From positions 74,305-138,304 of the forward strand of contig JACRKG010000054.1 in the NCBI GenBank assembly GCA_016215315.1: DNA of 64,000 bases, given 5' to 3'. Below are positions 11,295-59,331 of the stretch, piece after piece (the stretch's first letter is position 1; the number at the start of each line of letters is the position of its first letter). Source of the DNA: Candidatus Woesearchaeota archaeon (GTDB lineage Archaea > Nanobdellota > Nanobdellia > Woesearchaeales > ARS49). A model generated the notes under the pieces. It saw nothing but the letters and a program-made list of their open reading frames with translations, was not told the origin of the DNA and did not search any database. The translations under genes and the position numbers were made by a program.

Positions 11295-11562
11295 CCCTTT
11301 TTTGTATTGTTATTGGTTTTATTGTTTATAAAGCTTTGCTCGTTGAAATCCTCATTGAGTACTTTGTGCGATTGCTTTCGATCGGTGTCGAGATTTTACT
11401 GGCGGTCGGAGGGTGGGTGAGTTCTTTGTGTGCTTTAATAGATTCTTTTTTTATTATTTGTCTATGCCGCAAGAGATAACTAGACTCTGTATGCACACAA
11501 TTGTTTGGCGGCTGAAACTGAGAAAGTTAAACAGGATCAAGAAAAAATTTGAATTCTAAGTA

Positions 11563-11967
11563 TTACACTAAATCAACATTTTCTGCAATCGCGAGTAATC
11601 CTTGCTTTAGTGTTGCTGTATCACAAATTATGTCATGTGTGTGGGGGTTTATCGCCCATTTAATATCTAATGAAGAATTTAGGTTTACAAAGAAAATTGT
11701 TAATTCTTTATTTTTTATTAATAAACTCCAATTTTTGACAACAAAGTCTATGTTTGATGTTTTGTTCAGAGTAACTATTGCTAAGTCTTCATTTATTTTT
11801 TCGCTAATTTTTTCTAAAACTAAATCAGGAAGTATTAGGACTATTTGGTCTTTGCTTTTTCTTTTGACTATTATTTCGTTTTCATTATTCTCTTTAAATT
11901 CAAGAATATCATTAGAAGAATAGTCTTTCATTTTCAAAAATCCCAGGATCCAATTCTTCAAGTCCAT
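11563..11967 (-). CDS. Hypothetical protein
   Basis: An ORF of plausible composition with no recognisable motif. Confidence 0.35.
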   Translation of the reverse strand: MDLKNWILGFLKMKDYSSNDILEFKENNENEIIVKRKSKDQIVLILPDLVLEKISEKINEDLAIVTLNKTSNIDFVVKNWSLLIKNKELTIFFVNLNSSLDIKWAINPHTHDIICDTATLKQGLLAIAENVDLV

Positions 11968-12146
11968 GTAATAAATTATTTTTATTTACTTATTAAATCT
12001 TTTGCTGGAAAAATATAATTTCCAAAAAAACAAATTTGGAAATCATATTTTTCCAGAAAAGAAATCTTTATAAAGAGAGCTATTCTTATTATACTTAGTC
12101 GTAAGAAAGTAATGTCTTTTTTGTTGAAGACAAAAAGAAGGTGTGA

Positions 12147-12872: not shown

Positions 12873-12873
12873 A

Positions 12874-13428
12874 ATGGACATAGAAAAAATTAAGAAAATC
12901 AATGAAATCTCAAAAAACTTAAGAGCACACCATTTTTCGATGAGCTCTGAAGAAGCAACCAACGAAGCAAAAAGCATTTTTGGAGAATTGGGTTCTCTAC
13001 AACAAGGTCAAGCTTTACAAACAATGCAAGAACCTCAGCCTTCTCAAAATTTACAACAAGCTTCACAAGTATTACAATCCCAATCAAACAACCAGAATGG
13101 ATCTAGTGTTTTGCTTCTTGAAAAGAAATTTCAAATAATTTTGTCACAATCAGTAAAAACTCTTAAAGACGACTTAACCAACTTGCAAGATACTGTTGAG
13201 TTCTTGCAGCAAGAACTATCTAAACTACACCAAAAAGTGGCTAAAATGCAGCAACCAACACAACCAATAGTGCAACAACCACAACAATTTCAACAACCAG
13301 TTCAACAAGCACAACCACAACAAAATAATGTTCAGAAACCAGAAGAACCAAAACAAACTCATCCTAGACAAGGCAACTTAACTTCTGATGACGTTAAAAT
13401 AGAAAAATTCTTTTATTACGGCAAATAA
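12874..13428 (+). CDS. Coiled-coil protein with a Gln/Pro-rich low-complexity C-terminus
   Basis: QQPQQFQQPVQQAQPQQ tract; start is translationally coupled to the upstream gene. Confidence 0.45.
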   Translation: MDIEKIKKINEISKNLRAHHFSMSSEEATNEAKSIFGELGSLQQGQALQTMQEPQPSQNLQQASQVLQSQSNNQNGSSVLLLEKKFQIILSQSVKTLKDDLTNLQDTVEFLQQELSKLHQKVAKMQQPTQPIVQQPQQFQQPVQQAQPQQNNVQKPEEPKQTHPRQGNLTSDDVKIEKFFYYGK

Positions 13429-13433
13429 TTTTT

Positions 13434-14309
13434 ATGAAAGAAAAAAAAGAGAGTTTTTTATTAACAATACTTTTTATTCTAATTCTGGTTGAAGGAATTT
13501 TTTTAGCAGTAACAAACAGTGAAATAAAAACATTAAATGTTCAACTAAAAGACCAATCAGATTATTTTGAGCTAAAGATTAAAACACTAGAAACACAACT
13601 AACAGAATTAAAAAATGTTTCTGATGAAAATTTTGGCAAATTACAAAAAAATCTCGATCTAATAAGTGAAGAAGTAAAAGGAGTGCAAAAAGAAAGTCTT
13701 GAAAAAATAAAAAAAGTCCAAGAAGAAGTAAGCACTAGCAATGGAGATTTTTCTAAACTAATACAAGAAACTCTTCCTGCAGTAGTAAGTATTAAAGCAA
13801 ACACTGGTGTTGGAAGCGGGGTAATAATTCATCCAGATGGTTATGTAATAACAAATTATCACGTGATTAAGGATGCAATGCTTGCAGACTTAACAACCTA
13901 TGACGGAAGCTCACACAAAATAAACATTGTAGCTACAGATGCAAATAGCGACTTGGCAATACTGCAAATAACTGCGGAAAACAAAAAATTTCATTACTTA
14001 GAATTCGCTGATAAAATCATTGCAGGAGAAAGAGTTTTAGCTTTAGGAAACCCTGGAGGACTGGAATTTAGTGTTGCAGAAGGAATAATAAGCGCAACAG
14101 AAAGACCAGGACCTAATGGAATATTATATATTCAAAGTGATGTTCCTATAAATCCTGGAAACAGTGGAGGACCACTAATTAACAAACAAGGACAAATAAT
14201 AGGAATAAATACTCTTAAAGTAAAAGGATTTGAAGGAGTTGGATTTGCAGTACATTACAAGGTTGCAAAAGAAATGGTCGACAAAACGCTTAAGGGCAAA
14301 CTAGTTTAG
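13434..14309 (+). CDS. Membrane-anchored trypsin-like (S1/HtrA-type) serine protease without PDZ domains
   Basis: N-terminal transmembrane (TM) helix. Catalytic-triad contexts ITNYHV (His), DLAILQI (Asp), GNSGGPLIN (Ser). Confidence 0.7.
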   Translation: MKEKKESFLLTILFILILVEGIFLAVTNSEIKTLNVQLKDQSDYFELKIKTLETQLTELKNVSDENFGKLQKNLDLISEEVKGVQKESLEKIKKVQEEVSTSNGDFSKLIQETLPAVVSIKANTGVGSGVIIHPDGYVITNYHVIKDAMLADLTTYDGSSHKINIVATDANSDLAILQITAENKKFHYLEFADKIIAGERVLALGNPGGLEFSVAEGIISATERPGPNGILYIQSDVPINPGNSGGPLINKQGQIIGINTLKVKGFEGVGFAVHYKVAKEMVDKTLKGKLV

Positions 14310-14553
14310 CTTTCAGCTTTGATCGTTTGCGATTTTCTAATTTTATTGATTTGTAATTTTTGAATTTCTTTTTGATTCACCATTATTTTAGGAGCTCAGG
14401 CCGCCGTGAGTTATGTGCAAGAAAAGTTTTTTAATGTGGGTGGCGGCAGCATCATGAGTCCAGAAAAAAATAAAAGAATTTTGTCAGTGCACATGAATAA
14501 TTCTTCTGTTATCAATTCCCGCAGCAGCGGGTGTCAATGTTCCGATCGCCTTC

Positions 14554-14622
14554 TGGTTTATAGTTTATGGTTTGTAGTTCATAGTACGTCCTGTAAACTA
14601 TAAACTGCGAACCATAAACTAA
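14554..14622. repeat. Heptad-palindrome element, copy 1 (imperfect inverted repeat of tandem YRGTTYR heptads around GTACGTCCTGT)
   Basis: ggtttatagtttatggtttgtagttcatagtacgtcctgtaaactataaactgcgaaccataaactaa. Confidence 0.8.
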
Positions 14623-14799
14623 TCTGCGGTCGGCAAGGAGAAAATTTAAGTATTCAAAAAGCTCAAGTAAGTCAGAGACAAATTAATTATTGCCTAACAT
14701 CAAAAAAATACTAATTTTAACTTTTTTTATAAGAATTTTTAAATGTTTTCAAAGCATTTGAATAATTTAAAATCTTGCTTTGTTTTTTAAAAGGGGCTT

Positions 14800-14831
14800 G
14801 TGGGATTCTTCGTTACCAGAGGGAATCCCAC
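14800..14831. terminator. Perfect 9-bp stem hairpin (GTGGGATTC / GAATCCCAC) flanked by T-runs on both strands; candidate terminator downstream of the zinc-ribbon gene
   Basis: A GC-rich stem in AT-rich context, 42 nt past the stop of 14873..15166. Confidence 0.3.
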
Positions 14832-15166: not shown

Positions 15167-15430
15167 ATTATACCTTGAGGCTCTTCAGCAAAGTAAGAAT
15201 TCGTCTTTGCCAAGAGCCTCACTTTAACTTGTTTGTTTATTGTGTGGCTCTTAGCGATAATCACACACAATAATATCTAATAATGTAAATGCACATTTTG
15301 TGACATTAGTTGTGTGATTACTCATAATGTATAGGTAAAAAGAACTTATTTATATATTTTGCGCAAAAATTGTACATATTAACACTCTTCTGACTTTTTG
15401 TTACTAATTGTGTCAAAATGAAAAACCTTT

Positions 15431-15505
15431 TAGTTCACTGTTTACGGTTTGCAGTTTACAGTCGATGCAGTTCTGTAAACTGTGAACTGCAAACGGTAAA
15501 CTAAG
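15431..15505. repeat. Heptad-palindrome element, copy 2
   Basis: tagttcactgtttacggtttgcagtttacagtcgatgcagttctgtaaactgtgaactgcaaacggtaaactaa. Confidence 0.8.
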
Positions 15506-17111: not shown

Positions 17112-17113
17112 TT

Positions 17114-17182
17114 TAGTTTGTAGTTCGTAGTTTACAGTTTATAGTACGTCCTGTAAACTGCAAACTGTAAACTGTGAACTAA
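17114..17182. repeat. Heptad-palindrome element, copy 3; starts 3 nt from the start codon of the minus-strand pseudouridine synthase gene
   Basis: tagtttgtagttcgtagtttacagtttatagtacgtcctgtaaactgcaaactgtaaactgtgaactaa. Confidence 0.8.
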
Positions 17183-18622: not shown

Positions 18623-18676
18623 TTGTTTATTTAAGAAAGTAGATTTTATAAGCTTTTAATATTAACAATAACAAAC

Positions 18677-18746
18677 TAGTTCATAGTTTACGGTTTGCAG
18701 TTTACAGTACGTCCTGTAAACTGTGAACTACAAACCGTAAACTAAC
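18677..18746. repeat. Heptad-palindrome element, copy 4; its terminal CTA supplies the TAG stop of the minus-strand gene 18742..20181
   Basis: tagttcatagtttacggtttgcagtttacagtacgtcctgtaaactgtgaactacaaaccgtaaactaa. Confidence 0.8.
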
Positions 18747-20181
18747 TAATAATCCGATAAAAAAAAGCGGCAATCTTTGAGAAGAAACCAGTACTGCTGT
18801 TTTTGATTGTTCTAAATGATTGACCTGTAATTGGTGAGTAAGATCCTCTCAAACCTTCAGGAGTTATTCCTTCCATTCTTTCCGCACTTAAATCATAAGC
18901 ACGACTAACTTCATTACAATTAACTGACTTAAGCTGAGGAACCCAATCACCGCTTTCTGGATAAGAGCAAGTGAAACAGCCTTTAACACCGTTTTGATAA
19001 GTGTATCTTACTGATTCTTCTAAATTTATTGTAACTGCAGTACTTCCTGGCTCTCCAGTTATTGTTGGGCCAAATATGCATGCATTAGAAATTCCGAATC
19101 TGTAACGATCATTAGTTCTAACTCTTTCTTTATCCCAATCAAAACCTCTTAAGTCTGTTCTTCTACAATTAACTTCGTCTAACGAATTAAATGGTTCTCC
19201 TTTTGCACATTTAAAACATCTGGTTTCTGATGGTGGGCCTTCAAATTGATATCTGATTGTTTCTCCAATGTGAACTCTCAGAGTACTTATTGGTTCTGTA
19301 CTTGGTTTTTTATTATCTTTTGCAGAAGGATCAAAATCGCAAGTGTTAAGAGAGTTTTTCCCCGCTCCAAATTCTTCGTTGCAATAATCCAGAGAAGCAA
19401 CTTCGGTGCTTACTCCATTAATTGCTAAATTTTTGCAATTACTTAGAGTCATTTTTTCGTGTCTTGTATTCATTCCCGCTTGAGACGTAGTGACTTTGCA
19501 ACATACAGTAATATCAGTAAGGCCGGGTTGTAATTCATTTGTATACGAGTTACAAGATTCAACAGGAATGTCTATTTTTTCTCCACCATTTCTTTTGCAA
19601 GCAGTAGGACCTAAAGCACTAAGAATTTCCAAACCAGTTTTTGGACTTCTGTATTTACAACAAACATCATTACATGCTTCTTCGAGGAGAACTTCTCCAC
19701 CCATTTCTTGACACAATCCAATGCTGATTGGCTCGTCCCCAGAAACTTTATTATGCCATGCGGGGCCGTCAGGCGTATTAATTTTACAGCAAGAAGTTTT
19801 ACACATTTCTTCTGGATGACTGAAGAGTCCTTCTGCTCGGCAATTACCTGCTAAGCCCTTCTCCCATCTGCTCACACTCATTCCTTTAACTTGTTGCTGA
19901 CAACAAACTTGTGCACACATAGCATCAGAAGCAATATTTCCTCTTAATTCGCTAATACAATAATCTTGAAATACTTTTGCGTACCCATCTTTAGTATAAC
20001 AACATACCAATTCTTGAGGAATCAAAGGTTCAGTTTCTCTTTCCCTAGGAACACTTGTTTGCTGCATTAAAACTATTGGACATTGATTTTCTTCATCTTC
20101 ATAAACAAGTATTTTTGCGTTAACAATAGTTAGAATTAAGAGGAGCAAGGATAAAAGCAATAATAACCTCGTTTTTTGCAT
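18742..20181 (-). CDS. Secreted cysteine-rich protein with recurrent vicinal CC motifs
   Basis: A signal-peptide-like N-terminus (LLLLLSLLLLILTIVNA) and repeated motifs such as VCCYTKDG, VCCQQQV, SCCKINT, VCCKYRS, VCCKVTT. Confidence 0.5.
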   Translation of the reverse strand: MQKTRLLLLLSLLLLILTIVNAKILVYEDEENQCPIVLMQQTSVPRERETEPLIPQELVCCYTKDGYAKVFQDYCISELRGNIASDAMCAQVCCQQQVKGMSVSRWEKGLAGNCRAEGLFSHPEEMCKTSCCKINTPDGPAWHNKVSGDEPISIGLCQEMGGEVLLEEACNDVCCKYRSPKTGLEILSALGPTACKRNGGEKIDIPVESCNSYTNELQPGLTDITVCCKVTTSQAGMNTRHEKMTLSNCKNLAINGVSTEVASLDYCNEEFGAGKNSLNTCDFDPSAKDNKKPSTEPISTLRVHIGETIRYQFEGPPSETRCFKCAKGEPFNSLDEVNCRRTDLRGFDWDKERVRTNDRYRFGISNACIFGPTITGEPGSTAVTINLEESVRYTYQNGVKGCFTCSYPESGDWVPQLKSVNCNEVSRAYDLSAERMEGITPEGLRGSYSPITGQSFRTIKNSSTGFFSKIAAFFYRIIS

Positions 20182-20984: not shown

Positions 20985-21057
20985 ACTATTTCTCAATTTT
21001 TTTTATTGTTTTTTTTAAAAATTTTTTCCAGTTTTCAGTCCTACGGACATTTACTCT

Positions 21058-21101
21058 CAGACTGGCCGGCAAATTGATATGAACTTTGGCCGGCCAGTCT
21101 T
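21058..21101. repeat. Perfect 12-13-bp GC-rich hairpin (AGACTGGCCGGCC, 17-nt loop)
   Basis: agactggccggc aaattgatatgaacttt ggccggccagtct. Confidence 0.7.
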
Positions 21102-21128
21102 CGAAATAATAATCAATAATGATCTTGA

Positions 21129-21173
21129 AGACCGTCCGCCACAATGAAATTTTTATCAATCTGCGGACGGTCT
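21129..21173. repeat. Perfect 11-bp GC-rich hairpin (AGACCGTCCGC, 23-nt loop)
   Basis: agaccgtccgc cacaatgaaatttttatcaatct gcggacggtct. Confidence 0.7.
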
Positions 21174-21288
21174 GAAACTAACGTTAAACAGGAGAAACTT
21201 ACAAAGATTGATTTTTGCTTAACAAAAAAGCAAATTTTATAAACACCCCCGACAATAATGGCTTTAGCAATAAAAGGAGGAGATATTT

Positions 21289-21567: not shown

Positions 21568-22124
21568 AGACTTTGAGAGATAAAAAGCGTTCATAAAAGC
21601 TTTCTTTACTCTCAAGTAATTGTATTCTGCACTTTAGAAATATTTATAATTACCAGAATTAAAAATATAATTATCATTAAGACTTCTTAGTTGGGTGAGG
21701 GATGGTTAAAATGGACACTCGCCTCACAGATTATGGTTGTTTTGAAGATGATCGTTTTGAAGAATCAGAGCCAGAAAGCATAGAAATAACGATAACTGGA
21801 GCAAAACTCGAAAGACATGTAAGAATAGCTCCAGAAGAAGAAAGCATGCAAGTGTACCCCGTGAGATCAAGAAATTGCGTATCAAAGGTTTTCAATAGAA
21901 TAAAAACATACCTCGCTAATGCATGAGCGAGACGTCATTGGCTAACCACACCGAGCAGAAAAAATAAACCACAAAAAACAAACCCGAGGGGTGTCCTTTT
22001 TCACGAGACATCACGTGAGGTCGTTTTGGCATCGAAATATTACTGGGGATCAACGGTATCTATTATAAATAATTACGAGATAAGAAAGTAGGCAGTATTG
22101 TTTGATATTTGCTAATTTTTTTAA

Positions 22125-22156
22125 CTGTAAACTATAAACCGTAAACTACGAACTAG
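22125..22156. repeat. Heptad element half-copy
   Basis: ctgtaaactataaaccgtaaactacgaactag. Confidence 0.6.
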
Positions 22157-22164
22157 TAGGTTTA

Positions 22165-25027: not shown

Positions 25028-25070
25028 TAGTTCATTTACTATAAACTACAAACCGTAAACTATGAACTAC
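25028..25070. repeat. Heptad element half-copy that overlaps the stop of the minus-strand gene 25067..25807
   Basis: tagttcatttactataaactacaaaccgtaaactatgaactac. Confidence 0.6.
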
Positions 25071-25807
25071 TTTATCTCTTCGCTCTTCTCCCAAATAGTT
25101 AAGAAGTATTGATTAAGGAAGCTAGATAAGTCTTCATCTTTTATTAGTATGTTAAATCTTTCTTTTACTTCAGGACTTTTTAGTGTTATCTTGCAAGAAT
25201 TGCCGTCTTTTATTATTACTGAAAAATTTTGCAAAGGATAATATTTTACTTTTATTCCTATTCTTTTGTATGCCTTAATTAATTCTTGATTTACGGGAGT
25301 TCTAGTTATTATAATTCTAACATCGAATCCTTTTAATTTTTTTAATTCATCAATAAGAGTGTATTTGTGCCCGCTGCTAGCTCTCCAACCTAAAATGTAC
25401 AAAGATTTCCTGACTTTAGAAATGAATTCTTTTGTTATTGCTACGGAAGCATCAACGCCGTGAGAAAGACTAACAACTTGCGTTTTCTGCAAAACTTTAT
25501 GGTCGCACCTTAAATGGTCGAGTTCTGGAATGCCTACTTCTTCTAATTCTTTTAAATCATCAATTTTTTTCTCAATAAAATTCTTAACAGCAATAGAAGG
25601 CTTGATAGCTTCATACTCGCTAATTTCTCCTTCAAACTGCTGAATTAATCCTTTCTGAACTAAACTTTTAAGATTTGGGTAAACTGCTGTTGGAGGAACT
25701 TTTGAATGTTCGCTTAACTGTCTAGCATCACTCCTGCCATACTTGAGCAGTGCTTCGTAAATTGCACTTTCGTATCCATTTAATCCTAATTGCTTCAAAA
25801 CATCCAT
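25067..25807 (-). CDS. TrmB-family HTH transcriptional regulator
   Basis: N-terminal LGLNGYESAIYEALLKYG...ARQLSEHSKVPPTAVYPNLKSLVQKGLI. Confidence 0.5.
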   Translation of the reverse strand: MDVLKQLGLNGYESAIYEALLKYGRSDARQLSEHSKVPPTAVYPNLKSLVQKGLIQQFEGEISEYEAIKPSIAVKNFIEKKIDDLKELEEVGIPELDHLRCDHKVLQKTQVVSLSHGVDASVAITKEFISKVRKSLYILGWRASSGHKYTLIDELKKLKGFDVRIIITRTPVNQELIKAYKRIGIKVKYYPLQNFSVIIKDGNSCKITLKSPEVKERFNILIKDEDLSSFLNQYFLTIWEKSEEIK

Positions 25808-30635: not shown

Positions 30636-30724
30636 TAGTTTACAGAACTGGTTTGAAGTTTAAAGTTTGTAGTTTATAGGACGTCCTATAAACTGTAAAC
30701 TACAAACTATGAACTATAAACTAG
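30636..30724. repeat. Heptad-palindrome element, copy 8 (long, 89 bp)
   Basis: tagtttacagaactggtttgaagtttaaagtttgtagtttataggacgtcctataaactgtaaactacaaactatgaactataaactag. Confidence 0.8.
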
Positions 30725-31240: not shown

Positions 31241-32325
31241 ACAAAAAAGGCAGAGAAAATTCATTGCACAAATTTTCTGGTCTTTTTTTGAACTCAAAAA
31301 AAGGTGATGTTCCTAGCTTTGTACTAACACCAACTTTTCGAACATTACTTGCATTAGGAGTTGTACTTCTAACATTATTATATTTTGTCAACGGAATAGG
31401 CGGCAACACTAAATTCGAAAGACAATATTACTCGAGAGATATTGCATTACTAATCGATACTGTGCTTTCTTTACCAGGAAATTCAAATATTCTTTATTCT
31501 TATGACAAACCAGAATCAGAAACAAAATTTACATTAAAAGTAGACAAAGAAAAAGTTACTATGAAAGACGTAGGAGAAAATTATTTTCCTTATTTTTTAA
31601 AAAAAGACACTAATTTTGAACCAGTAACAATAGAACCTTCAGAACCAAATATCATAAAAATAATTAAGAGCGGAAATAATTTACTCATCAAAAATGTTTT
31701 GGAAAAAAGATTTCCAGACGAATTAAATTGCTACAAACCAAAAGAAAGCATTAATTCGGTAATAATTGATGCAATGCATTTATCAAATCCCAACTCAGAA
31801 TTTCACAATCCAGGAAATTCTTACGCGGGAATCTCTGAAGCAGACTTAACTTTAAAGTTAGGTAAAGCAATAAAAAATTCTGCAACAGATATAACAATAG
31901 AAGAGACAAGATTTCTAGAAAGAGCAACCGAAGGAAAACAAGCAAACATGGATGCACCAATAAGTTTGCTAGATAGAATTGCAAAAATTAAATCCTCAAA
32001 AGCACAACTACTATTATCTTTGAAATTTGGAGATTACGATGAAAAATTCTACTTAAAAGCCTATGTTAGCCCACAAAATTATGAAAAAAGTTATGCGATT
32101 GCTTGCCAAGTGCTTAATAGCATAGGAAAAAAGTTATACGAAAACGATAAAAAAATTGATGGGCTTGTCATAATTCCGTTAAACCCTGAACACACTAGCA
32201 GTGAAGATGATGCAGTTATTCAAGAAAAAGATGGATTAATACTTGAAGCAGGTAGTGTAAGAAATCCGCCTAATGACGCAGAAATGATCCTTATAGCACA
32301 AGCAATTGTTGAGGGACTAAAATGA
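31234..32325 (+). CDS. Pilin-like or secreted protein with a conserved extended N-terminal leader (...KFSGLFLNSKKG|DVPSF...)
   Basis: The ATG overlaps the upstream stop. The leader is shared with 33180..34109 at both protein and DNA level. Confidence 0.45.
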   Translation: MLNKKGRENSLHKFSGLFLNSKKGDVPSFVLTPTFRTLLALGVVLLTLLYFVNGIGGNTKFERQYYSRDIALLIDTVLSLPGNSNILYSYDKPESETKFTLKVDKEKVTMKDVGENYFPYFLKKDTNFEPVTIEPSEPNIIKIIKSGNNLLIKNVLEKRFPDELNCYKPKESINSVIIDAMHLSNPNSEFHNPGNSYAGISEADLTLKLGKAIKNSATDITIEETRFLERATEGKQANMDAPISLLDRIAKIKSSKAQLLLSLKFGDYDEKFYLKAYVSPQNYEKSYAIACQVLNSIGKKLYENDKKIDGLVIIPLNPEHTSSEDDAVIQEKDGLILEAGSVRNPPNDAEMILIAQAIVEGLK

Positions 32326-33183: not shown

Positions 33184-34109
33184 AAAACAGAAAATTGTCA
33201 CATTCAAGAAAAGGCAGCGAAAATTCACTTCGTAAATTTTCTGGTCTTTTTTTGTGCTCAAAAAAAGGAATAGAATACTTAACACTAATGATTCCAGTAT
33301 TAATGATAGTTACTGGATTCTTGATTTATGAAGTAATGATTAAAGTAAATGCACAAGACCTCACTATGGGAGAATATTCGGCAGCATTACTAAATATTAA
33401 TGATCAAGCAAGCAAAGACTTACTATCTTTAGATTTTATTGTGGAAAAAGCAGCTAGAAATGCACTTTACAGATTAGCACAAAATAACGGTTTACCTTTA
33501 GGAACTAGTTGTGGAACGGCAAAAGATTACAAATTATGGAATGATGAAAAAAATTCTAAAAAAATGTGCACTAAAAGCATTCACGAAAATTATGCAGAAT
33601 ACTTAAACATAGAAATAAACAAGTACTTACCTGAAGATAAAAAAACAAACTTTGAGTTTTACATAACTGATGACAGTATTCATGGAGTAGCACTAGAAAA
33701 TTGGAATTATCCATTATTCTTACCAGAAAAAAAAGTTAGCGCAACATTCATGGGCATAACTGTTTTTGACGAAAAAGTAGGAAGCCCGAAATTCGGAGAA
33801 TACACGATAAAACCATCATTCAAAGTAGATTTTCCTAATGAACTAAATAATTTAGAAAAATTAAGAACAAACATAGAAAAAATGGCAATATTCTGTTCAG
33901 ATAGAGAATACAAGACTACAGAATCATTAGAAAACTGCACAGAACAATTCCCGCTAGAATTCGGTAAAGTATCAGTGCAAAAATCAAGAAGCAACAACAT
34001 ATTCTATTTTGACGTAAACTCAGACATGAGCTCATTAAATGAAGAAATAAAAATAAACTTTAAATTCGCAATACAAATACCTTGGACAAAGAGCGAGGAT
34101 GAGAAATAA
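33180..34109 (+). CDS. Pilin-like or secreted protein with the conserved extended leader (...KFSGLFLCSKKG|IEYLTLMIPVLMIV)
   Basis: ATGA overlap with the upstream gene; leader conserved with 31234..32325. Confidence 0.45.
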   Translation: MKNRKLSHSRKGSENSLRKFSGLFLCSKKGIEYLTLMIPVLMIVTGFLIYEVMIKVNAQDLTMGEYSAALLNINDQASKDLLSLDFIVEKAARNALYRLAQNNGLPLGTSCGTAKDYKLWNDEKNSKKMCTKSIHENYAEYLNIEINKYLPEDKKTNFEFYITDDSIHGVALENWNYPLFLPEKKVSATFMGITVFDEKVGSPKFGEYTIKPSFKVDFPNELNNLEKLRTNIEKMAIFCSDREYKTTESLENCTEQFPLEFGKVSVQKSRSNNIFYFDVNSDMSSLNEEIKINFKFAIQIPWTKSEDEK

Positions 34110-35330: not shown

Positions 35331-35386
35331 AAAATAATTAAAAGAACTAGTTTTAAATATCTATGTGTCGAATAATATTACTAACT

Positions 35387-35454
35387 TAGTTTACAGTTTG
35401 TAGTTTGAGGTTTACGGGAAGTACTGTGAACTGCAAACCGTAAACTGTAAACTA
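35387..35454. repeat. Heptad-palindrome element, copy 9
   Basis: tagtttacagtttgtagtttgaggtttacgggaagtactgtgaactgcaaaccgtaaactgtaaactaa. Confidence 0.8.
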
Positions 35455-35514
35455 ATAATGTTGTTTTTAATCACATAAATTTTTATAAATCAATCAGAGC
35501 TTTAGCTTTTCGGG

Positions 35515-36516
35515 GTGGTAGTTTTGTTAAATCAAGATTTACAAGCAGTAATTAGTAAGATCAAAGAACAATCAGGACTTCCAGAGAAAGAAGTACTTCA
35601 AAAAATAGAAGAAAAACTAAACCAATTATCAGGACTAATTTCTAAAGAAGGAGCAGCAAACATTGTTGCAAATGAATTAGGCGTTAAACTCTTTGAAAAT
35701 TCAGGAAAAATAAAAGACATAAGCACAGGCCTAAGAAGCGTAGAAGTGCTAGGAAAAGTAACTGCCCTCTATAACATAACTGAATTTCCAAGACAAGACG
35801 GAACTAACGGAAAAGTAGGCAGTTTCATGATTGGTGACGAAACAGGAACAATGAGAATAGTCTGTTGGGGAACACAAGCAGACGTAATAAAACAATTAAG
35901 CGAAGGAAGTATAGTAAAAATAAAAGGCGGATACGTTAAAGAAAATAACAGAGGGTTCTTAGAAGTTCACATGAATGAAAGAGCAAAAATAGTCGTAGAT
36001 CCAAAAGGAGAAAAAGTAGAAACAGTAAGCAAAACTACTATCCCTGCAGTAGCAGAAAGAAAAAAACTCAACGAAATAACAGAAAACGATGCAAAAGTAG
36101 AAGTCTTCGGAACAGTAAGACAAGTATTTGACCCAGTATTCTTTGAAGTATGCCCAAAATGCGGCAAAAGAACCAAAGCAACAGAAGCAGGATACAACTG
36201 CCAAGAACACGGAAGCATAACTCCAGAATACAGATACGTAATGAACGTTTACTTAGATGACGGCCACGGAACAATAAGAGTAGTATTATTCCACGAACAA
36301 GCGCAAAAATTACTCAAAAAAACCAACCCAGAAATACTAGAGTACAGAACAAACCCAATGAACTTTGAAACAATAAAAAACGATTTATTGGGCGAACAAT
36401 ACAAATTCACGGGAAAAGTAAAAAAGAACGAAGTAATGAACAGAATAGAACTAGTAGCATACGACTTAAAACCAGGAAACCCAGAAGAAGAACTGGCAAA
36501 GTTGCAAAGTAGTTAG
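35515..36516 (+). CDS. rpa: Replication protein A-like ssDNA-binding protein (OB folds plus a zinc ribbon)
   Basis: Tandem OB-fold-like segments and CPKCGKRT...CQEHG. The stop codon TAG is the first triplet of a heptad element. Confidence 0.65.
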   Translation: MVVLLNQDLQAVISKIKEQSGLPEKEVLQKIEEKLNQLSGLISKEGAANIVANELGVKLFENSGKIKDISTGLRSVEVLGKVTALYNITEFPRQDGTNGKVGSFMIGDETGTMRIVCWGTQADVIKQLSEGSIVKIKGGYVKENNRGFLEVHMNERAKIVVDPKGEKVETVSKTTIPAVAERKKLNEITENDAKVEVFGTVRQVFDPVFFEVCPKCGKRTKATEAGYNCQEHGSITPEYRYVMNVYLDDGHGTIRVVLFHEQAQKLLKKTNPEILEYRTNPMNFETIKNDLLGEQYKFTGKVKKNEVMNRIELVAYDLKPGNPEEELAKLQSS

Positions 36517-36557
36517 TAGTTTACAGTTTACAGTTCATGGCTTGCAGTTTAAAGTTG
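36514..36557. repeat. Heptad element half-copy that overlaps the RPA stop codon
   Basis: tagttagtagtttacagtttacagttcatggcttgcagtttaaagttgg. Confidence 0.6.
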
Positions 36558-36568
36558 GAGTTTTCAGA

Positions 36569-36718
36569 TGAAAAAAATATTAAGCATTTTTTTAACAATT
36601 CTGTTAGTGATTAATATTCTATTATTCAGTTTCGGAAAAATAACTCCCTTCTATTTCTGGACAACAATAATAATTTGCGCAATAGCAGCTTATGTTGTTC
36701 TGCCGAAGATGAAGTAGA
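36569..36718 (+). CDS. Small membrane peptide (49 aa), speculative
   Basis: MKKILSIFLTILLVINILLFSFGK...; below the ORF-track size cutoff. Confidence 0.25.
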
Positions 36719-36746
36719 TAATTTCCGGATGTCTAAATGTTGCTGA

Positions 36747-37004
36747 GTTTTTCGAGTGTCTTAAAAAATTATTTGCCTTTTTTATGGACTGTCAATGTCG
36801 CCAAAACCGGCAAGAAACTATGCAAACACACTCTGCGTGGCGACCCAAGCTCTGAAAAAACTAGCAGTTCTTAACAATAATTTGAGAAAATCTGGCAATA
36901 TCGAGCTTTAGCTTTTGTAGCCACTGAACAGTGGTTAAAAATAGAAACATTTAAATATTAGTGTCTATTAGTATTACTAAAATTAATATTTTGGAGGAAT
37001 TAAA
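36747..37004 (+). promoter_or_regulatory. Conserved upstream element, copy A (about 240 nt, relatively GC-rich, three conserved stems), ending in a promoter/RBS for 37005
   Basis: Very high identity to 38297..38533. Stems GTCGCCA/TGGCGAC, AAGCTC/GAGCTT and CCACTG/CAGTGG. Confidence 0.6.
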
Positions 37005-37331
37005 ATGGATTTTATTCATAAATATGAGGCATTTAAAGGTCAATTAGTTGAAGCTTGCACTCTTGTTATGGAGGGTGATGAACCAGTTAGTTTTGTTGGG
37101 ACAGTTAATCCTGTGCAACTTAATCCTGCTTCTTTACATCTTCTTGGAGCTGTAAGAGTAGACCAGCTTGAGGACATTATAGTTGATGATTCAGATAATG
37201 AAAATGAACATCTCAAAATGGTATTAGCTACAAAAGGAGAAGGTCATATTCTATCAACCGAACATGTTTGGGGAATGAGATCAATTGATCAAAAAACAGT
37301 AGGAGATTATAAAACAGAAAAAGATTGGTGA
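37005..37331 (+). CDS. Acidic hypothetical protein (108 aa)
   Basis: The RBS ggagg 8 nt upstream; ORF. Confidence 0.4.
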   Translation: MDFIHKYEAFKGQLVEACTLVMEGDEPVSFVGTVNPVQLNPASLHLLGAVRVDQLEDIIVDDSDNENEHLKMVLATKGEGHILSTEHVWGMRSIDQKTVGDYKTEKDW

Positions 37332-37415
37332 ACAAAATGACAAATAAAATACTTAACAAATTATTAGATTACAAAACTGAAATAGTTTTAACATTATTAG
37401 TTTTAGGGGTGCGAT

Positions 37416-37574
37416 ATGCTTGATACAATGGATGCATTATTTTTCATGGACAAATACAAGAAAGAAATAACTGCAGGAGTAATTGCACTATTTGTAGGTT
37501 ATCAATTAATTAGCGATCTTTATTTTACAAATGATAAAGAAACTAGTAAAGCTAAATCACAGGAGAACAAATAA
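37416..37574 (+). CDS. Small membrane protein (52 aa)
   Basis: MLDTMDALFFMDKYKKEITAGVIALFVGYQLI...; ATG inside gcgatATGcttga. Confidence 0.3.
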   Translation: MLDTMDALFFMDKYKKEITAGVIALFVGYQLISDLYFTNDKETSKAKSQENK

Positions 37575-37575
37575 A

Positions 37576-37986
37576 ATGGCTAATGAATTACTTTGTAAAG
37601 CAACTTATCCTTTACTTGGCAATTTGTCAAGTGGTGTTAAAGAAGAAGTAGAAAACTTTCTTGGCAGCGAAAATTTTAGTGCAAGAAATGCAACAGAAGC
37701 ATCTTACTGGACTAATGCAGTGATTTATGCCGGTCTAGGAGTTCACTTAGGAATGGGCACTGATATTAGTGGCATGGGCGCAGTATGTGGTGGTCTTGCA
37801 GGAGCAATGCTTGCAACACTAGAAGGATTTTGCAGAGAAGCGTCTTACAATCATGACATTCAAACTTGGGGTTTAAGCGAAACTGGTGGAAAAACAGCTT
37901 CATTAGTTGGAAAAGTTGTTTCTTTACCTTTAGATGCAATAATGATATTAAATGAAAAAATAAAAGAAAATAAGCGAGGTAAATAA
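37576..37986 (+). CDS. Glycine-zipper small protein (136 aa)
   Basis: GLGVHLGMGTDISGMGAVCGGLAGAMLA. The RBS aggag lies upstream; the ORF-track start at 37531 is less likely. Confidence 0.4.
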   Translation: MANELLCKATYPLLGNLSSGVKEEVENFLGSENFSARNATEASYWTNAVIYAGLGVHLGMGTDISGMGAVCGGLAGAMLATLEGFCREASYNHDIQTWGLSETGGKTASLVGKVVSLPLDAIMILNEKIKENKRGK

Positions 37987-37988
37987 AA

Positions 37989-38192
37989 ATGTATAAACAA
38001 AACGAAAGTCCTTATGTTAGGCCTTCATTTTTGGCTATGTTTTTTGGGGATGTTTTAGGTGGTTTGGAAGCTACTGTAGACAAAGAATCTGTGGAACAAC
38101 CAACTGGAAAAGTGGACGAAAGACAGAATCAAATGAAGATAAAAGGAAACCAAATAAGAAAAGTTCATGTAAGCTATCATAAGAAAGGCTGA
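37989..38192 (+). CDS. Small hypothetical protein (67 aa)
   Basis: Tightly coupled to the upstream gene. Confidence 0.3.
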   Translation: MYKQNESPYVRPSFLAMFFGDVLGGLEATVDKESVEQPTGKVDERQNQMKIKGNQIRKVHVSYHKKG

Positions 38193-38296
38193 TTTTTTTA
38201 TTTCTTTTTGCTAATTATTGTAAAAATCAGGTTTTTAAATTTCTTAGTATGTTGAAAGGTCGTACTTATTGATTTATTGTCCTTTCTAAAGGTCAT

Positions 38297-38533
38297 GTTT
38301 TTGAAGTGCCTTAAAAAAATCATTTGCCTCTTTTTTATGGACTGTTAATGTCGCCAAAACCAGCAAGAAACTCTGCAAACACACTCTGCGTGGCGACCCA
38401 AGCTCTGAAAGTACTAGAAGTTCTTGATATCTATTCAAAAACATTTGGCAATATCAAGCTTTAGCTTTTGTAGCCACTTATCAGTGGTAAATAAACGAAA
38501 CATTTATATACTAGTACATACTAATATTACTAC
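38297..38533 (+). promoter_or_regulatory. Conserved upstream element, copy B; its 3' end carries TTTATATA at -31..-24 of the ATG at 38534, implying a leaderless promoter
   Basis: High identity to 36747..37004. Confidence 0.6.
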
Positions 38534-39049
38534 ATGCAAGTGGTAAAAATAGGTTTAGGATTAGTAATTGCTTTCCTGTTCTTTTTTGCAGGATGGCAAC
38601 TGAATGATTCTTCTAGTGGTGTTTACGCTCAAGAAATAGCACAACCACAAAACATTCAAAAAATCACATTAACAGATAGAGAAAAACCTTCACCACAAGA
38701 CTGGATTAAAGAAGACCAAATACATGTTTATTCTGACAAAATAGTAATTGATTTACCTAACGCTAGATGGGCTAAATTTACTGACACAAATTCAATGGAC
38801 CCAGTATTTGATGCTGGAAGCAATGCAATACAAGTAATTCCAGAAAAAGCAGAACAATTAGCTGTTGGAGACATAATTACTTACCAATCAAAATACTTGA
38901 AAGAAGGAGTAATCCATAGAATTGTAGAAATCAATGAAGACGAACAAGGCTGGTATGCAATAGTAAAAGGAGACAATAACGATGCTCAAGATCCAGAAAG
39001 AGTAAGATTTGAACAAATAAAAAAAGTACTTGTTGGAGTGTTGTACTAA
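38534..39049 (+). CDS. Secreted or membrane-anchored hypothetical protein, first gene of a long operon
   Basis: Signal-peptide-like KIGLGLVIAFLFFFAGWQL. Confidence 0.45.
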   Translation: MQVVKIGLGLVIAFLFFFAGWQLNDSSSGVYAQEIAQPQNIQKITLTDREKPSPQDWIKEDQIHVYSDKIVIDLPNARWAKFTDTNSMDPVFDAGSNAIQVIPEKAEQLAVGDIITYQSKYLKEGVIHRIVEINEDEQGWYAIVKGDNNDAQDPERVRFEQIKKVLVGVLY

Positions 39050-39409: not shown

Positions 39410-40015
39410 ATGAATAAGTCCTTACTAGAAAAATTAAGTAATGATGCGCTAGTAGATCGAGCCATCCAAATTGGAGACAGAACAGGTTATATGGCTTCTT
39501 TTTTTACTGGAGGTTTATTTAGTTTAGAACAATTGCATAATTTATTTGAAGAAATAAAGATTTCAGGACAAGCTCACGAAAAATCCAAATTCTTAGAGTT
39601 AGGTTCTGGTAATGGTGTTGTAGCGATACTGGCAGCAAGTGCAGGATTTGAGTCATACGGAATAGATATTAATAAAGACTTAGTTGGTTTATCCGGAGAA
39701 TTTTTAGAACAGCTCAAAAGAGAAGGAGCAGTTCCAGATGGTCTTCTTTGTAGGTTTGTTGCGGGTGATTATTCTGCAGAAAGAAGAGCAGCTTATGATG
39801 AGCTAGGAATAAAATTTTCTGAAATAGATGTTTTTTACGCTTTCAATACTTTTGAAGAATTAAAGAAAATTTATGAAATGTTTGAAAAACACTCAAAAAA
39901 TTCAGCAAGACTAATACATCCAGGAATCGGAGTTTTAGATTTCATTAGATCGAATTTTGAAAACTTAGAAGCAACAGAAACTGGAAATTTTACAGTTATT
40001 AATAAAAAAGGATAA
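39410..40015 (+). CDS. Class I SAM-dependent methyltransferase
   Basis: Motif I LELGSGNGVVAILAA and an acidic residue after beta-2 (YGIDIN). Confidence 0.55.
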   Translation: MNKSLLEKLSNDALVDRAIQIGDRTGYMASFFTGGLFSLEQLHNLFEEIKISGQAHEKSKFLELGSGNGVVAILAASAGFESYGIDINKDLVGLSGEFLEQLKREGAVPDGLLCRFVAGDYSAERRAAYDELGIKFSEIDVFYAFNTFEELKKIYEMFEKHSKNSARLIHPGIGVLDFIRSNFENLEATETGNFTVINKKG

Positions 40016-40020
40016 AGAAA

Positions 40021-40686
40021 ATGAACGAACAAACACTTGATACGAGAATGGTGAAAGATTGGAAAGAGGTTCTACCTGTTGTAAGACCGTTCTATGAGGG
40101 TTTTTTTGGTGAGAAAGTTCCTGAAGATTTGAGTATTGAGATGGTTCCTTTTGAGGAATTAGTTGCTCATGGTATGAGTAATATTTTAACTGGTGAAATG
40201 AAGCTTGCAATTCAAAGTATGCGTGAAGTGGCCAAGACATTTTTTCATGAAAGAGCACATTACTTATTCGAACAAAATTCTGGACTCGGTGTAAAACACA
40301 GACAAAATAGTGTTAGTGCTCGTACAGGCACGCCTGAAGAGTTATCTTTTTTTGACAATCTCACACTAAAACCTTTTTGGCGTCATTTATTCTTAGAAGA
40401 ATGTGTTGCTTATACTGTTGAGGCAGTATTTGCATTTCAAAATTCTGCAAAAAGCATGCCTGAAGAAGATAAAATATCATTAAAGTCAGATTCAAATTTT
40501 GTTATTGATAATTATGTGAATAAATACAGTGTTAAAAAATTACGAGAAGGAGTAGAAGAGCGTCATGAATGCATAATCATTGGTGCTTACTTAGGAGACA
40601 AATACAAAAACGATCCACAATTATGGTCAAAACTAAAACAATTACGAACTTTAGATGACTTGAGGAGGTTAGTGAATGACTCTTAA
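40021..40686 (+). CDS. HExxH-motif protein (putative minimal zinc metallopeptidase), module 1
   Basis: FFHERAHYLFE, with a downstream glutamate (FLEECVAY). Paralogous to 42468..43166. Confidence 0.5.
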   Translation: MNEQTLDTRMVKDWKEVLPVVRPFYEGFFGEKVPEDLSIEMVPFEELVAHGMSNILTGEMKLAIQSMREVAKTFFHERAHYLFEQNSGLGVKHRQNSVSARTGTPEELSFFDNLTLKPFWRHLFLEECVAYTVEAVFAFQNSAKSMPEEDKISLKSDSNFVIDNYVNKYSVKKLREGVEERHECIIIGAYLGDKYKNDPQLWSKLKQLRTLDDLRRLVNDS

Positions 40687-41176: not shown

Positions 41177-41721
41177 ACGCAGATGTTGAATCAATCCAAG
41201 AATTATGCAGAACATACAAACCATTATGGGAGAAAACATTAATTGAAAGACACTTTCAAGGACAAAATCCTTTACGATCAAAAGGAGTTTGCGGACTAGC
41301 TACGCACATTTTAGGAAATCAGTTATCAAAACATTATTTAATTATGGATCAAGTAAGTAGGGGTGAAAAAATAACTGGAGATAATAGTGGAATAATTATT
41401 TGGGGTTTAGATTATCCTGGTTTTTTTAATCAACACACTTTTTTAGTAATAAGCGACATTATAGTTGATGGAGCATTCCACCAGTACATGGATGCATTTA
41501 ATTTAGCTCACGAAGAACCGAATGATATCTTAGTAGTTCCTTATTCAAGACTTGATGAAAAAGTTGAAGAAATGGTTTCTAAATCAAGAGGAGAATTACC
41601 TCAAGGAGTTAGAGATTTAGAACACTTAAAGCGCGGCCTAAGAAGTATTTGGGATTACAAAATACCTCATTCATATGTTAGAGAATTTCATGGTAAAAGA
41701 GGCTCTCGAAATGAATCCTAA
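41173..41721 (+). CDS. Hypothetical protein with a Cys...His...Asp arrangement reminiscent of transglutaminase-like or papain-like peptidases (weak)
   Basis: KGVCGLATH ... HTFLVISD ... DGAFH. Confidence 0.3.
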   Translation: MNADVESIQELCRTYKPLWEKTLIERHFQGQNPLRSKGVCGLATHILGNQLSKHYLIMDQVSRGEKITGDNSGIIIWGLDYPGFFNQHTFLVISDIIVDGAFHQYMDAFNLAHEEPNDILVVPYSRLDEKVEEMVSKSRGELPQGVRDLEHLKRGLRSIWDYKIPHSYVREFHGKRGSRNES

Positions 41722-42484
41722 TACTGAAGAACTTATAACAGCATTAACTGACTCAGTTTATTTAGAGCGCTCAATGATTGCTGGCACACTTAGTACTGGT
41801 TTTCATCCTTCAATTGTGGGTTTTGACAGAAAATTAGGAAGTCGGGGAAATACTTGCAGACACTTCAAATTAGGATGTCAATGCAGAGCAGTCAGAGAAA
41901 TGCGCAACGAACTACAACACTTAATCAGTCAAGGAATACTAAAACAAGGAAATAAAATTTTGGAATTAGGATCAGCAAATGGATTAATGACGATGCTTTT
42001 TGCAAGTGTTGGATTAAACGCTTACGGGATTGAAATAAATGAAAAATTAGTTAGATTAGCTCACGAAAAATTAGAAGAGTTAAGAAGTAAAGGTTTAATG
42101 CCAGAAAATGTTTATTGCAAATTTGGTAAAGGAAGTTATTACTTAGAAGACTTAGTTAGTGAAAAAGAAAAAAAAGAATTAGTTGAAGGCTTAGGAAGAC
42201 AAGATCCTGCAGTAATATTTCCATTCAGAGAAGGAAACCCATACCAACAATTAGGAATAAATTTTGGAGATTTAGATGTAATTTACGGATTTTTATGGGA
42301 CGAAGATGAAATGAACGTTTGGAAATTATTCGCCAAACACGCAAAACAAAATGCAAAATTATTACACTTAAAAGTAGGAAGAGTAAACGCGTTAGACTTA
42401 ATGGACTTAGGACTAACAACAAGATATGTAGAACTTCCTGCATACTCGAAAACGAATCTTTATTTAATTGAGAAGAGGATATAA
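41711..42484 (+). CDS. Class I SAM-dependent methyltransferase, paralog of 39410..40015
   Basis: ILELGSANGLMTMLFA ... YGIEIN; start chosen at ATG 41711 (the ORF track gives 41675). Confidence 0.55.
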   Translation: MNPNTEELITALTDSVYLERSMIAGTLSTGFHPSIVGFDRKLGSRGNTCRHFKLGCQCRAVREMRNELQHLISQGILKQGNKILELGSANGLMTMLFASVGLNAYGIEINEKLVRLAHEKLEELRSKGLMPENVYCKFGKGSYYLEDLVSEKEKKELVEGLGRQDPAVIFPFREGNPYQQLGINFGDLDVIYGFLWDEDEMNVWKLFAKHAKQNAKLLHLKVGRVNALDLMDLGLTTRYVELPAYSKTNLYLIEKRI

Positions 42485-43166
42485 AATGATAAATCGAACA
42501 ACAAATACGGAAGTAGTGAAAGACTGGAGAGAAGTTGTACCTATTGTTGAGCCTTTTTATGAAAGATTTACTGGAGAAGAAATACCTAACTTGGAAAACA
42601 TTGTTGGGTTGTTCTCTGAACAAGAGCGATCTGATCACCCTGAAATTTTAGGAATTTGTAAGTTTAATTCGGAATCTAAAAATATAAAACTAGCATTATG
42701 TAGTTTTGAAATAACTGCACACAATTTATTTCATGAATTACTACATAGAGCTTATGAACTTGAACATGAATTGACTTTAAAATACAAATCGGCAGCCTCA
42801 AAGAATAATAATTGTAGTAAAGATGAGAGAAAAAAGGCAAAAAAAGAATTTCATAAAATAATCTTTTTGCATGAATGTGTTGCTTACGCAGGATCTTTTG
42901 TTTTTAACTCACTTTTTTTAAACAATAAAGGAGAATATGAAGATCCAAAATACCAAGTTTTTCCTTCAATAGGAAGCGCAAGACAAGCGTTTCTTTTAGC
43001 TGAACTGGAATTGGAAAAAGAACTACCCGGTTTCGAAACTAGAGTTATGTATACTAGGCAAATAGGTGTGTATATTTCAGCAAAATACCAAAACGATCCA
43101 CAATTATGGTCTAAACTAAAACAATTACGAACTCTTAATGATTTAAGGAGGTTAGTCGATGGCTAA
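42468..43166 (+). CDS. HExxH-motif protein, module 2
   Basis: LFHELLHRAYELEHE and FLHECVAYAG. The last 70 nt are about 90% identical to the 3' end of 40021..40686. Confidence 0.5.
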   Translation: MRRGYKMINRTTNTEVVKDWREVVPIVEPFYERFTGEEIPNLENIVGLFSEQERSDHPEILGICKFNSESKNIKLALCSFEITAHNLFHELLHRAYELEHELTLKYKSAASKNNNCSKDERKKAKKEFHKIIFLHECVAYAGSFVFNSLFLNNKGEYEDPKYQVFPSIGSARQAFLLAELELEKELPGFETRVMYTRQIGVYISAKYQNDPQLWSKLKQLRTLNDLRRLVDG

Positions 43167-59051: not shown

Positions 59052-59052
59052 A

Positions 59053-59102
59053 TAGTTTGTAGTTTGTGGTTTGGAGTTCACAGTACGTCCTGTAAACTAC
59101 AA
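59053..59102. repeat. Heptad-palindrome element, copy 12
   Basis: tagtttgtagtttgtggtttggagttcacagtacgtcctgtaaactacaa. Confidence 0.75.
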
Positions 59103-59331
59103 CAAGTACAAATGATAAAAAGAAAGTAGATGAGTTTTGTAAGTGCACTCGCTAAACTTTTCTATTATCAATTTCCGCAGCGCGGCGTCAATGTTCCGAA
59201 CGCAAAACCGGGAAAATATAATTCAGGCACGATGATATTGCGTTCGGGCTAGGGGAAAAAGTTCAACATACATAGAAAGAATCAAAGTTTTTAACACTGA
59301 CATTTTAACATAAGCTGCAAATCAGGAACAA

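Follow-up and report, generated by a model that had tools for sequence, protein, structure and literature searches.

Short interspersed repeats of bacteria, such as REP/BIME, pneumococcal BOX, ERIC and the Correia elements of Neisseria, are intergenic and multi-copy, combine modules in varied ways and form stable stem-loops. They lie at gene ends in either orientation and are found at rearrangement breakpoints and at sites that differ between strains. DPANN archaea have small, gene-dense genomes, and to our knowledge almost nothing is known about their non-coding RNAs and repeat elements. We analyzed a 64,000-nt archaeal stretch of about 32% GC from a Candidatus Woesearchaeota archaeon (contig JACRKG010000054.1; hereafter the window), in which an examination of the letters alone (hereafter the sequence-only reading) had pointed to two similar stretches of roughly 240 nt, A and B, each ahead of an operon. 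The upstream part of both stretches belongs to a dispersed family that occurs in the window and in a close sister genome, and our preferred though still tentative reading of the sequence comparisons is that A and B are members of a lineage-specific, interspersed, modular and structured element family that probably acts as RNA.

Like the bacterial repeats, the element is multi-copy, intergenic and modular, has stable stem-loops, takes gene-end positions in both orientations, and coincides with rearrangement breakpoints and strain differences. It differs from them in its host, a DPANN archaeon, in the lack of any sequence similarity, and in its core, which is a pseudoknot with conserved unpaired blocks where theirs is a plain palindrome; a transposase, of RAYT type or otherwise, was not seen here, and the copies within a genome are highly diverged (55-75%). 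None of the tests that we ran placed it in a described family. By analogy, the REP/BIME, BOX and Correia elements are best read as its closest counterparts, and so far the family has been found only in one Woesearchaeota lineage. The comparison covered the signal-peptidase locus in four related Woesearchaeota genomes (L002, L003, L005 and L006) and a 12.9-kb segment (L010) of the sister genome GCA_053530895.1, taken around the orthologue of a protease gene that adjoins one of the copies in the window. The window and L010 genomes share about 85% nucleotide identity. Coordinates of the element are given on the strand used by the sequence-only reading.

A dispersed family with two crossing helices

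A (36747-36985) and B (38297-38533) show a mean column identity of 84% in a MAFFT alignment. A BLAST comparison of the window with itself returned the pair at 84.3% identity (36747-36979 vs. 38297-38532, E = 1.7e-67), and a repeat search joined them over 203 nt at 85%; copies of this exact type number only two in the window, against a chance expectation of 0. They are direct repeats 1.55 kb apart, and the genes 3' of them are indeed unrelated, with an ORFan of 108 amino acids after A and a signal-peptidase-I-like protein after B. The only database match of the ORFan is its own record, MBI5066554.1 (from a Candidatus Woesearchaeota metagenome-assembled genome, MAG), apart from a 1.6-kb contig of the same strain. 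The raised GC content was also borne out, being 38% over the whole element and 44-45% in a 91-nt core, compared with 32% in the window. The divergence between A and B is patchy (chi-square test, P = 1.2e-4): identity is 91% in the core, 68% in the middle, 96% in a 3' block and 72% in the hairpin plus promoter.

A profile made from A and B alone (nhmmer) found two further members in the window, one at 14497..14380 on the minus strand (E = 8.5e-5) and one at 11422..11527 on the plus strand (E = 0.03), here named c14 and c11. A covariance model was built from these four copies; a search of this kind, over the genome and its relatives, had been suggested by the sequence-only reading, and over the window and the loci of relatives it recovered further copies as well as compensatory changes. 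In the window the four copies score 84-103 bits and nothing else exceeds 15 bits; on L010 three copies, L10a, L10b and L10c, were detected at 73, 60 and 41 bits; L10b is the positional orthologue of c14. Together with one partial member, the window thus holds four core copies and one partial copy, and across about 81 kb of the two genomes the family has no fewer than eight copies. It had been considered that A and B might be the only two copies, flanking a recent duplication; this number of copies, and the covariation between them, do not agree with such a view. About 75 kb from relatives at 59-71% amino-acid identity contained no clear copy of the element.

A full-length member is about 300 nt long and consists of a hairpin with a long loop (H0), a small GC hairpin (H1), AATTGATAA, a GTG box, a T-run, the helix P1 described below and a tail that is rich in A and carries small hairpins. 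H0 and H1 were recognized by inspection; RNAalifold mis-aligned H0 in the 5' module, and its result was not used. The 5' module (H0, H1 and AATTGATAA) precedes the core in c14, L10a and L10c and is missing from A, B, c11 and L10b. Full-length c14 occupies 14300..14633 on the minus strand (84 bits), with H0 arms at 14626-14633 and 14542-14549, H1 at 14518-14531, AATTGATAA at 14509-14517, P2 strands at 14488-14494 and 14413-14419 and P1 arms at 14441-14447 and 14400-14406; its A-rich tail extends to the stop codon of the protease gene. The 5'-truncated c11 lies at 11410..11552 on the plus strand (84 bits; P2 at 11427-11433 and 11493-11499, P1 at 11466-11472 and 11505-11512). The partial member at 59107..59254 on the minus strand is a 5' half alone, with H0 arms at 59238-59247 and 59196-59205, H1 at 59175-59185, AATTGATAA and the GTG box, and it matches a profile of the 5' module with E = 5e-41. 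Copy A, a 5'-truncated member without H0 and H1, spans 36747..36920 as aligned with B, and its core at 36779-36869 scores 99.6 bits; its 3' limit was inferred from where B stops matching L002. Copy B spans 38297..38473 and scores 103 bits.

Two helices make up the core. P1, which the sequence-only reading had called as its first stem, is a GC-rich helix of 7 bp with a loop of 33-34 nt and is kept in all seven core copies (A, B, c14 and c11 in the window; L10a, L10b and L10c in L010). Its arms were found exactly where expected, GTCGCCA at 36797..36803 and TGGCGAC at 36838..36844 in A and the same arms at 38350-38356 and 38391-38397 in B, with a loop of 34 nt in both. The variants GUCGCCA/UGGCGAC, GCCGCC/GGCGGC and GUCACCA/UGGUGAC occur among the copies, and L10c carries the G.U intermediate GUCGCCA/UGGUGAC. 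The second helix, P2, had been missed: the GTG box about 40 nt upstream of P1 pairs with a CAC box inside the P1 loop, which gives an H-type pseudoknot. In A the 5' strand (GAGTGT, 36754..36759) pairs with ACACTC at 36828..36833 within the P1 loop, so that P1 and P2 cross, and in B the two strands are at 38304-38309 and 38381-38386. The sequence of P2 differs in almost every copy while complementarity is kept, as in GAGUGU/ACACUC, AUGUGCA/UGCACAU, UGUGUGC/GCACACA, GUGUGCGU/ACGCACAC and GUGCAC/GUGCAC; the strands of A, B and L10a pair best when displaced by 2 nt.

Covariation was scored in an alignment of the seven core copies. Standard pairs fill 83.9% of the P1 and P2 cells, compared with 76.5 +/- 1.6% in shuffled alignments (0 of 500 as high), and 7 pairs are changed on both sides, compared with 2.9 in shuffles. 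The covariation score is 0.232 vs. 0.122 in shuffles (again 0 of 500 as high), and sliding the partner strands leaves only 21-46% of the cells paired. Across A, c14 and c11, P2 is the sole helix of at least 6 bp that is kept in place; of 1000 column shuffles, 11 produced a helix of this kind. Between the orthologues c14 and L10b, P2 has undergone two compensatory changes; the identity of this pair is 74% in the element and 85% in the flanking genes. From this pattern of substitutions, P1 is judged a selected helix with compensatory changes. The sequence-only reading had offered a structured small RNA or a joint upstream regulator; because P1 is such a helix, a structured nucleic acid, probably RNA, is a fair reading of the region, while the joint regulation did not hold up, as described below.

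The other proposed pairings fared less well. In A the second stem has 6 bp (AAGCTC at 36847-36852 and GAGCTT at 36903-36908) and encloses the poorly conserved middle region; in B, where the 3' arm reads AAGCTT, it is weaker, with 5 bp plus a C.A mismatch. As a conserved stem it is not clearly kept outside the A/B pair and is uncertain in other family members. The third stem is present at 36921-36934 and 38474-38487, although in both copies it is better read as 5 bp with a 4-nt loop than as helices that differ in their loops, and it lies outside the element (see below).

The statement that no recognized RNA family is involved agrees with our searches, in which the window gave no Rfam match at gathering score. 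A relaxed Rfam search (E up to 5-10) of 36500-38700, 11200-14800 and all of L010 returned only unrelated chance matches outside or across the element. A search for an exact 20-mer of the core in genome, metagenome and viral collections gave one chance match, in a betaproteobacterial MAG. A gapped pattern of the 5' module gave 5 matches (3 distinct sequences) in metagenomes, none with the hairpins or a covariance-model match, and no match in the viral collection; BLAST of the element against phage and plasmid sequences gave no match either. A C/D-box or H/ACA small RNA was rejected, as CUGA follows P1 in only 3 of the 7 aligned copies, the alignment shows neither a conserved C box nor an ACA 3' of P1, and the element has no Rfam snoRNA match. 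A tRNA-like minihelix, a split tRNA, RNase P, a group II intron and type I or type III toxin-antitoxin systems were dropped on inspection.

An intergenic look-alike was seen in L003, from a more distant relative, at about 18996-19117 on the minus strand. The GTG and CAC boxes, the T-run, a GC stem of 7 bp and a small GC hairpin with AATTGATAAAAC after it are all present, in a different order. With a borderline profile match (E = 0.07) and a different topology it was left out of the family, of which it may be a distant cousin.

Promoter module, cassette site and inverted block

Each copy of about 240 nt is made of two parts, an upstream element of about 175 nt and a promoter module of about 60 nt. 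In the promoter module an ACT-N4-AGT palindrome, which is the third stem of the sequence-only reading, is followed by CGAAAC and then by TTTATATA. At the signal-peptidase loci of L002, L003, L005 and L006 only the last ~60 nt of A and B recur and the upstream element is missing. The L002 signal peptidase is 91% identical in protein sequence to that of the window, and the match between L002 and the window sets in precisely where the palindrome starts, at 38474, with 91% identity onward. Because the homology starts at this point and the relatives carry the module alone, the third stem and the A/T box are assigned to a promoter module that is separate from, and older than, the upstream element. 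The module is conserved at 8 loci in 5 genomes, with or without the element nearby. The view of a single 240-nt unit that jointly controls two operons is thus not supported. Nor is the upstream part tied to operon starts: the element occurs in either orientation relative to genes, at gene 3' ends and between convergent genes. For example, c14 and L10b abut the stop codon of a gene, and c11 has a minus-strand gene on either side while itself being on the opposite strand. For genome scans this means that what looks like an "upstream element" common to two operons may combine a promoter module of older origin with a dispersed repeat that is unrelated to it.

The A/T boxes were correctly located. 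In the native signal-peptidase promoter (38474..38536, plus strand) the palindrome at 38474-38487 is followed by CGAAAC at 38496-38501 and by TTTATATA at 38503-38510 (-31..-24 relative to the ATG at 38534). CGAAAC and TTTATATA together cover -38..-24 of this leaderless ATG, as in an archaeal B recognition element (BRE) and TATA box, and are kept at the 8 loci; a BRE and TATA box at this distance from a leaderless ATG, as proposed for B, are kept in five genomes, and the conserved stretch of about 175 nt does lie upstream of a genuine archaeal promoter, as had been concluded. The promoter module of the cassette operon (36921..36957, plus strand) has the palindrome CCACTgaacAGTGG at 36921-36934, a BRE-like AGAAAC and the TATA box TTTAAATA at 36950-36957, and it is followed by GGAGG at 36993-36997 and the ATG at 37005. 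Because the ACT/AGT core of the palindrome is invariant in the alignment of the 8 loci and its outer positions are often non-complementary, the palindrome fits a DNA-binding site better than an RNA stem.

Between A and B lies a strain-specific cassette (37005..38192, plus strand) of four to five small open reading frames (ORFs), of which those called have 108, 52, 136 and 67 amino acids. In all four relatives the gene order is RPA, a small membrane ORF, a variable insert and the signal peptidase. The insert consists of ORFans in the window, of a PIN toxin-antitoxin pair plus other genes in L003 and L006, and of a YafQ-type pair in L002, and the promoter module is often present twice per locus, before the insert and before the signal peptidase. 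The site between the RPA/small-ORF genes and the signal peptidase thus looks like a cassette insertion hot spot with the promoter as the repeated unit. Incoming cassettes may carry a copy of the signal-peptidase-type promoter, and in this strain one copy of the element adjoins each promoter copy, which would be how both operons came to carry it.

Copies of the element also lie at both ends of a rearranged block. The segment 11573-14300 of the window, from ORF134 to the protease, corresponds to 8157-10867 of L010 and is inverted relative to both flanks. A Fic-domain gene is inserted in L010 only, and in a more distant relative the protease is directly followed by the oxidoreductase. A one-step inversion model for the block was discarded, being inconsistent with the orientations of the element copies. 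Copies differ between the close strains, and truncated copies are frequent. At 21029-21224, the site in the window that is orthologous to that of L10c, the A-rich tail known from L10c is preceded by a pair of long GC-rich hairpins (GACCGTCCGC...GCGGACGGTC and GACTGGCCGGC...GCCGGCCAGTC), which may be a different variant of the element family.

Mode of action and competing explanations

If the preferred reading is correct, the element would act as a folded single strand, most likely RNA, transcribed with or beside neighboring genes in the manner of the bacterial REP/BIME, BOX and Correia elements. It could affect the ends or stability of transcripts, or promote recombination as dispersed homology, and it could have spread by recombination copying or with the help of a factor acting in trans. 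Several observations weigh against this reading. The covariation statistics are modest, coming from seven core copies in two close genomes. The folding energy of single copies is ordinary (z from -0.4 to -1.5), and P2 in single sequences is no longer than chance helices because the loops are U- and A-rich. In the strand tally, P1 and P2 as read by the sequence-only reading contain 8 A.C cells, each of which would become G.U if the other strand were read, and 3 G.U cells. The conserved unpaired blocks hint at a role more specific than that of a generic stabilizing hairpin. A Pfam scan of about 40 ORFs of the window revealed no transposase, integrase, reverse transcriptase or TnpB, and no terminal inverted repeats or target-site duplications were seen when the termini of A, B, L10a and L10c were inspected or when the window was compared with L002 and L010, where the element ends are imprecise and no empty site was recovered. 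Because neither of these repeat signatures was seen, mobility is inferred only from the differences between strains.

As for the strand, the one used here is favored by GNRA tetraloops of the tail hairpins (GCAA, GCGA and GUAA), by A-rich loops and by the G.U pair in P1 of L10c. A reverse-strand RNA, which five A.C mismatches had suggested, was withdrawn when further copies gave G.U pairs and GNRA loops on the strand of the sequence-only reading. T-runs were likewise rejected as terminators, since runs of six or more T are common within the genes of the window, whose sense strands hold 72 of them.

Two other explanations are live rivals. The family may consist of independently transcribed small RNA genes with their own promoters, whose pseudoknot core binds a protein or target in trans and of which A and B are recent paralogues. 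We regard this as possible but rather unlikely. The covarying helices, the conservation of the unpaired blocks around them, the GNRA-capped tail hairpins and the persistence of the fold in the orthologues c14 and L10b speak for such genes. So does the layout of A and B, where P1 has a TTAAAAAA box some 30 nt ahead of it and the final small hairpin is succeeded by a T4 run. However, the position of this putative TATA box is not conserved in L10a, L10c and c14, the T-runs are uninformative and the A.C vs. G.U tally cannot decide the strand; moreover, truncated and chimeric copies, turnover between strains and a density of about one copy per 10-15 kb would be unusual for a family of trans-acting small RNAs. 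That same tally, which shows no clear strand preference, is what one might see if the helices acted in DNA, as a recombination or attachment site or as the single-stranded ends of a non-autonomous transposon (an IS200/IS605-type palindrome-associated transposable element, PATE, or a miniature inverted-repeat transposable element, MITE), with the cassette captured site-specifically. The copies flank the strain-specific cassette as direct repeats and occur at both ends of the inverted block, and they have been gained, lost and truncated between close strains. Like MITEs and PATEs, including the IS200/IS605-type ones with a TnpB guide-RNA scaffold, the element is short, non-coding and dispersed, has truncated copies and hairpins near its ends and varies in presence among strains, and TnpB-associated RNAs also hold a pseudoknot. 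In contrast to them, its ends are imprecise and showed no terminal inverted repeats or target-site duplications, and TnpA/TnpB genes were detected neither among the ORFs scanned in the 64 kb nor in the loci of relatives, whose gene tables contain no recombinase or transposase gene. Integron attC arrays also resemble it, with folded repeats that flank a promoter-proximal, strain-variable cassette and with toxin-antitoxin cassettes at the site in neighbor strains; still, the unit that bounds the cassettes of relatives is the promoter module and not the element, A and B lack the R''/R' cores (RYYYAAC/GTTRRRY), and no integrase or tyrosine recombinase gene was found in the ORFs scanned. Crossing helices with compensatory changes are typical of RNA and not of recombinase sites. 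On balance a role at the DNA level appears improbable.

The remaining explanations are disfavored. That the conserved part is functionless and A and B merely reflect a plain recent duplication of the upstream region of the signal peptidase could account for direct repeats that bracket a strain-specific insertion, and a short-read assembly of the same strain breaks exactly within their shared core. Such a duplication is very improbable and already contradicted by the five further members at unrelated sites of two genomes and by the covariation in both helices; the strongly uneven divergence of A from B, and the L002 promoter without an upstream element, speak in the same direction. A shared cis-regulatory region or leader (an operator array or a riboswitch) that co-regulates both operons, the second option of the sequence-only reading, is suggested by the position of A and B, each directly upstream of a promoter in the same orientation, and is no easier to accept. 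The other members are not upstream of co-oriented genes, the signal-peptidase promoter does without the element in all four relatives, and there is no Rfam riboswitch match; a riboswitch or cis leader was rejected because A and B are upstream of the promoter boxes and, elsewhere, copies are found where genes end or opposite to the gene strand. Least credible of all is a small protein encoded by a 38-codon ORF (36795-36911 and 38348-38464; MSPKPARN...), with the TTAAAAAA box about 30 nt upstream of its ATG. The ORF is intact in A and B with the same frame, start and stop, their divergent middle is free of indels, and an ATG stands at the foot of P1 in 6 of the 7 members. However, pN/pS (the ratio of nonsynonymous to synonymous changes per site) is about 1 (0.14/0.15 for A vs. 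B and 0.31/0.33 for B vs. L10a), and the purifying-selection test for a small protein gene failed, the frame or length not being kept in 4 of the 7 copies: ORF length ranges from 13 to 48 codons, the frame is lost in c14, c11 and L10b, and L10c has ACG for ATG. No homologue was found among 1.84 billion representative proteins, and by our own estimate an open frame of 38 codons occurs by chance in about 8% of such AT-rich stretches.

A bolder form of the preferred reading, which we consider unlikely on the sequence evidence, is that the family represents an undescribed structured non-coding RNA of about 300 nt (H0, H1, the P1/P2 pseudoknot and GNRA-capped tail hairpins) in one Woesearchaeota lineage, with a specific biochemical role. 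If so, it might, for example, process itself or be mobile, or it might work together with a protein that drives cassette capture and inversions in reduced genomes. HDV-like (hepatitis delta virus) ribozymes, the pistol ribozyme and some riboswitches likewise have a 7-bp P1 that encloses a strand pairing, in a second helix, with a partner beyond the hairpin, but the first P1 pair of the element is G-C and not G.U, its loops are far longer and it has no Rfam match in the relaxed search. An HDV-like ribozyme was rejected: only the crossing of P1 and P2 is similar, P3, P1.1 and the catalytic-C arrangement could not be placed on inspection, and there was no Rfam match of HDV type. For the family as a whole, the presence of such dense, covarying and pseudoknotted intergenic elements at an inversion and at a site of cassette insertion points to a way in which these genomes stay plastic, possibly with regulation at the RNA level, in archaea not yet grown alone.

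Neighboring repeats and genes

The window lacks tRNA genes and any Rfam family at gathering score over its 64 kb, and its ORFs include PCNA, an RPA-type OB-fold protein, RadA, TrkH and, at 25067-25807, a regulator of the TrmB family. It harbors a second and more abundant repeat family, composed of palindromes of about 70 nt that are built of 7-nt units (AGTTTAC, AGTTTGT and similar) and mostly lie directly after gene ends. Palindromes of this family were found at 14553-14622, 15426-15505, 17113-17182, 18676-18745, 30648-30717, 35386-35455 and 59052-59121, and half copies at 22121-22163, 25035-25073 and 36510-36555. Some are inserted in or beside copies of the element: that at 14553-14622 sits in the H0 loop of c14, and that at 59052-59121 occupies the place of the 3' half of the partial member.

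Other repeats in the window involve coding regions. A methyltransferase gene and an uncharacterized gene following it are present as two diverged paralogous pairs (39410-40686 vs. 41675-43166), whose C-terminal ends are 81-88% identical in DNA (40579-40681 vs. 43062-43164). Two stretches of 60 nt at the 5' ends of two nearby genes (31245-31304 vs. 33209-33268) are 88% identical and encode the N-terminal motif ..ENSL.KFSGLFL..KKG, possibly a signal or pilin-like leader. A direct repeat of 250 nt with 96% identity (5337-5586 vs. 6071-6320) lies beside a gene (3817-5250) for a protein of 477 amino acids with internal cysteine-rich repeats, in which ...TGTCCTCAAGATTG... units recur periodically.

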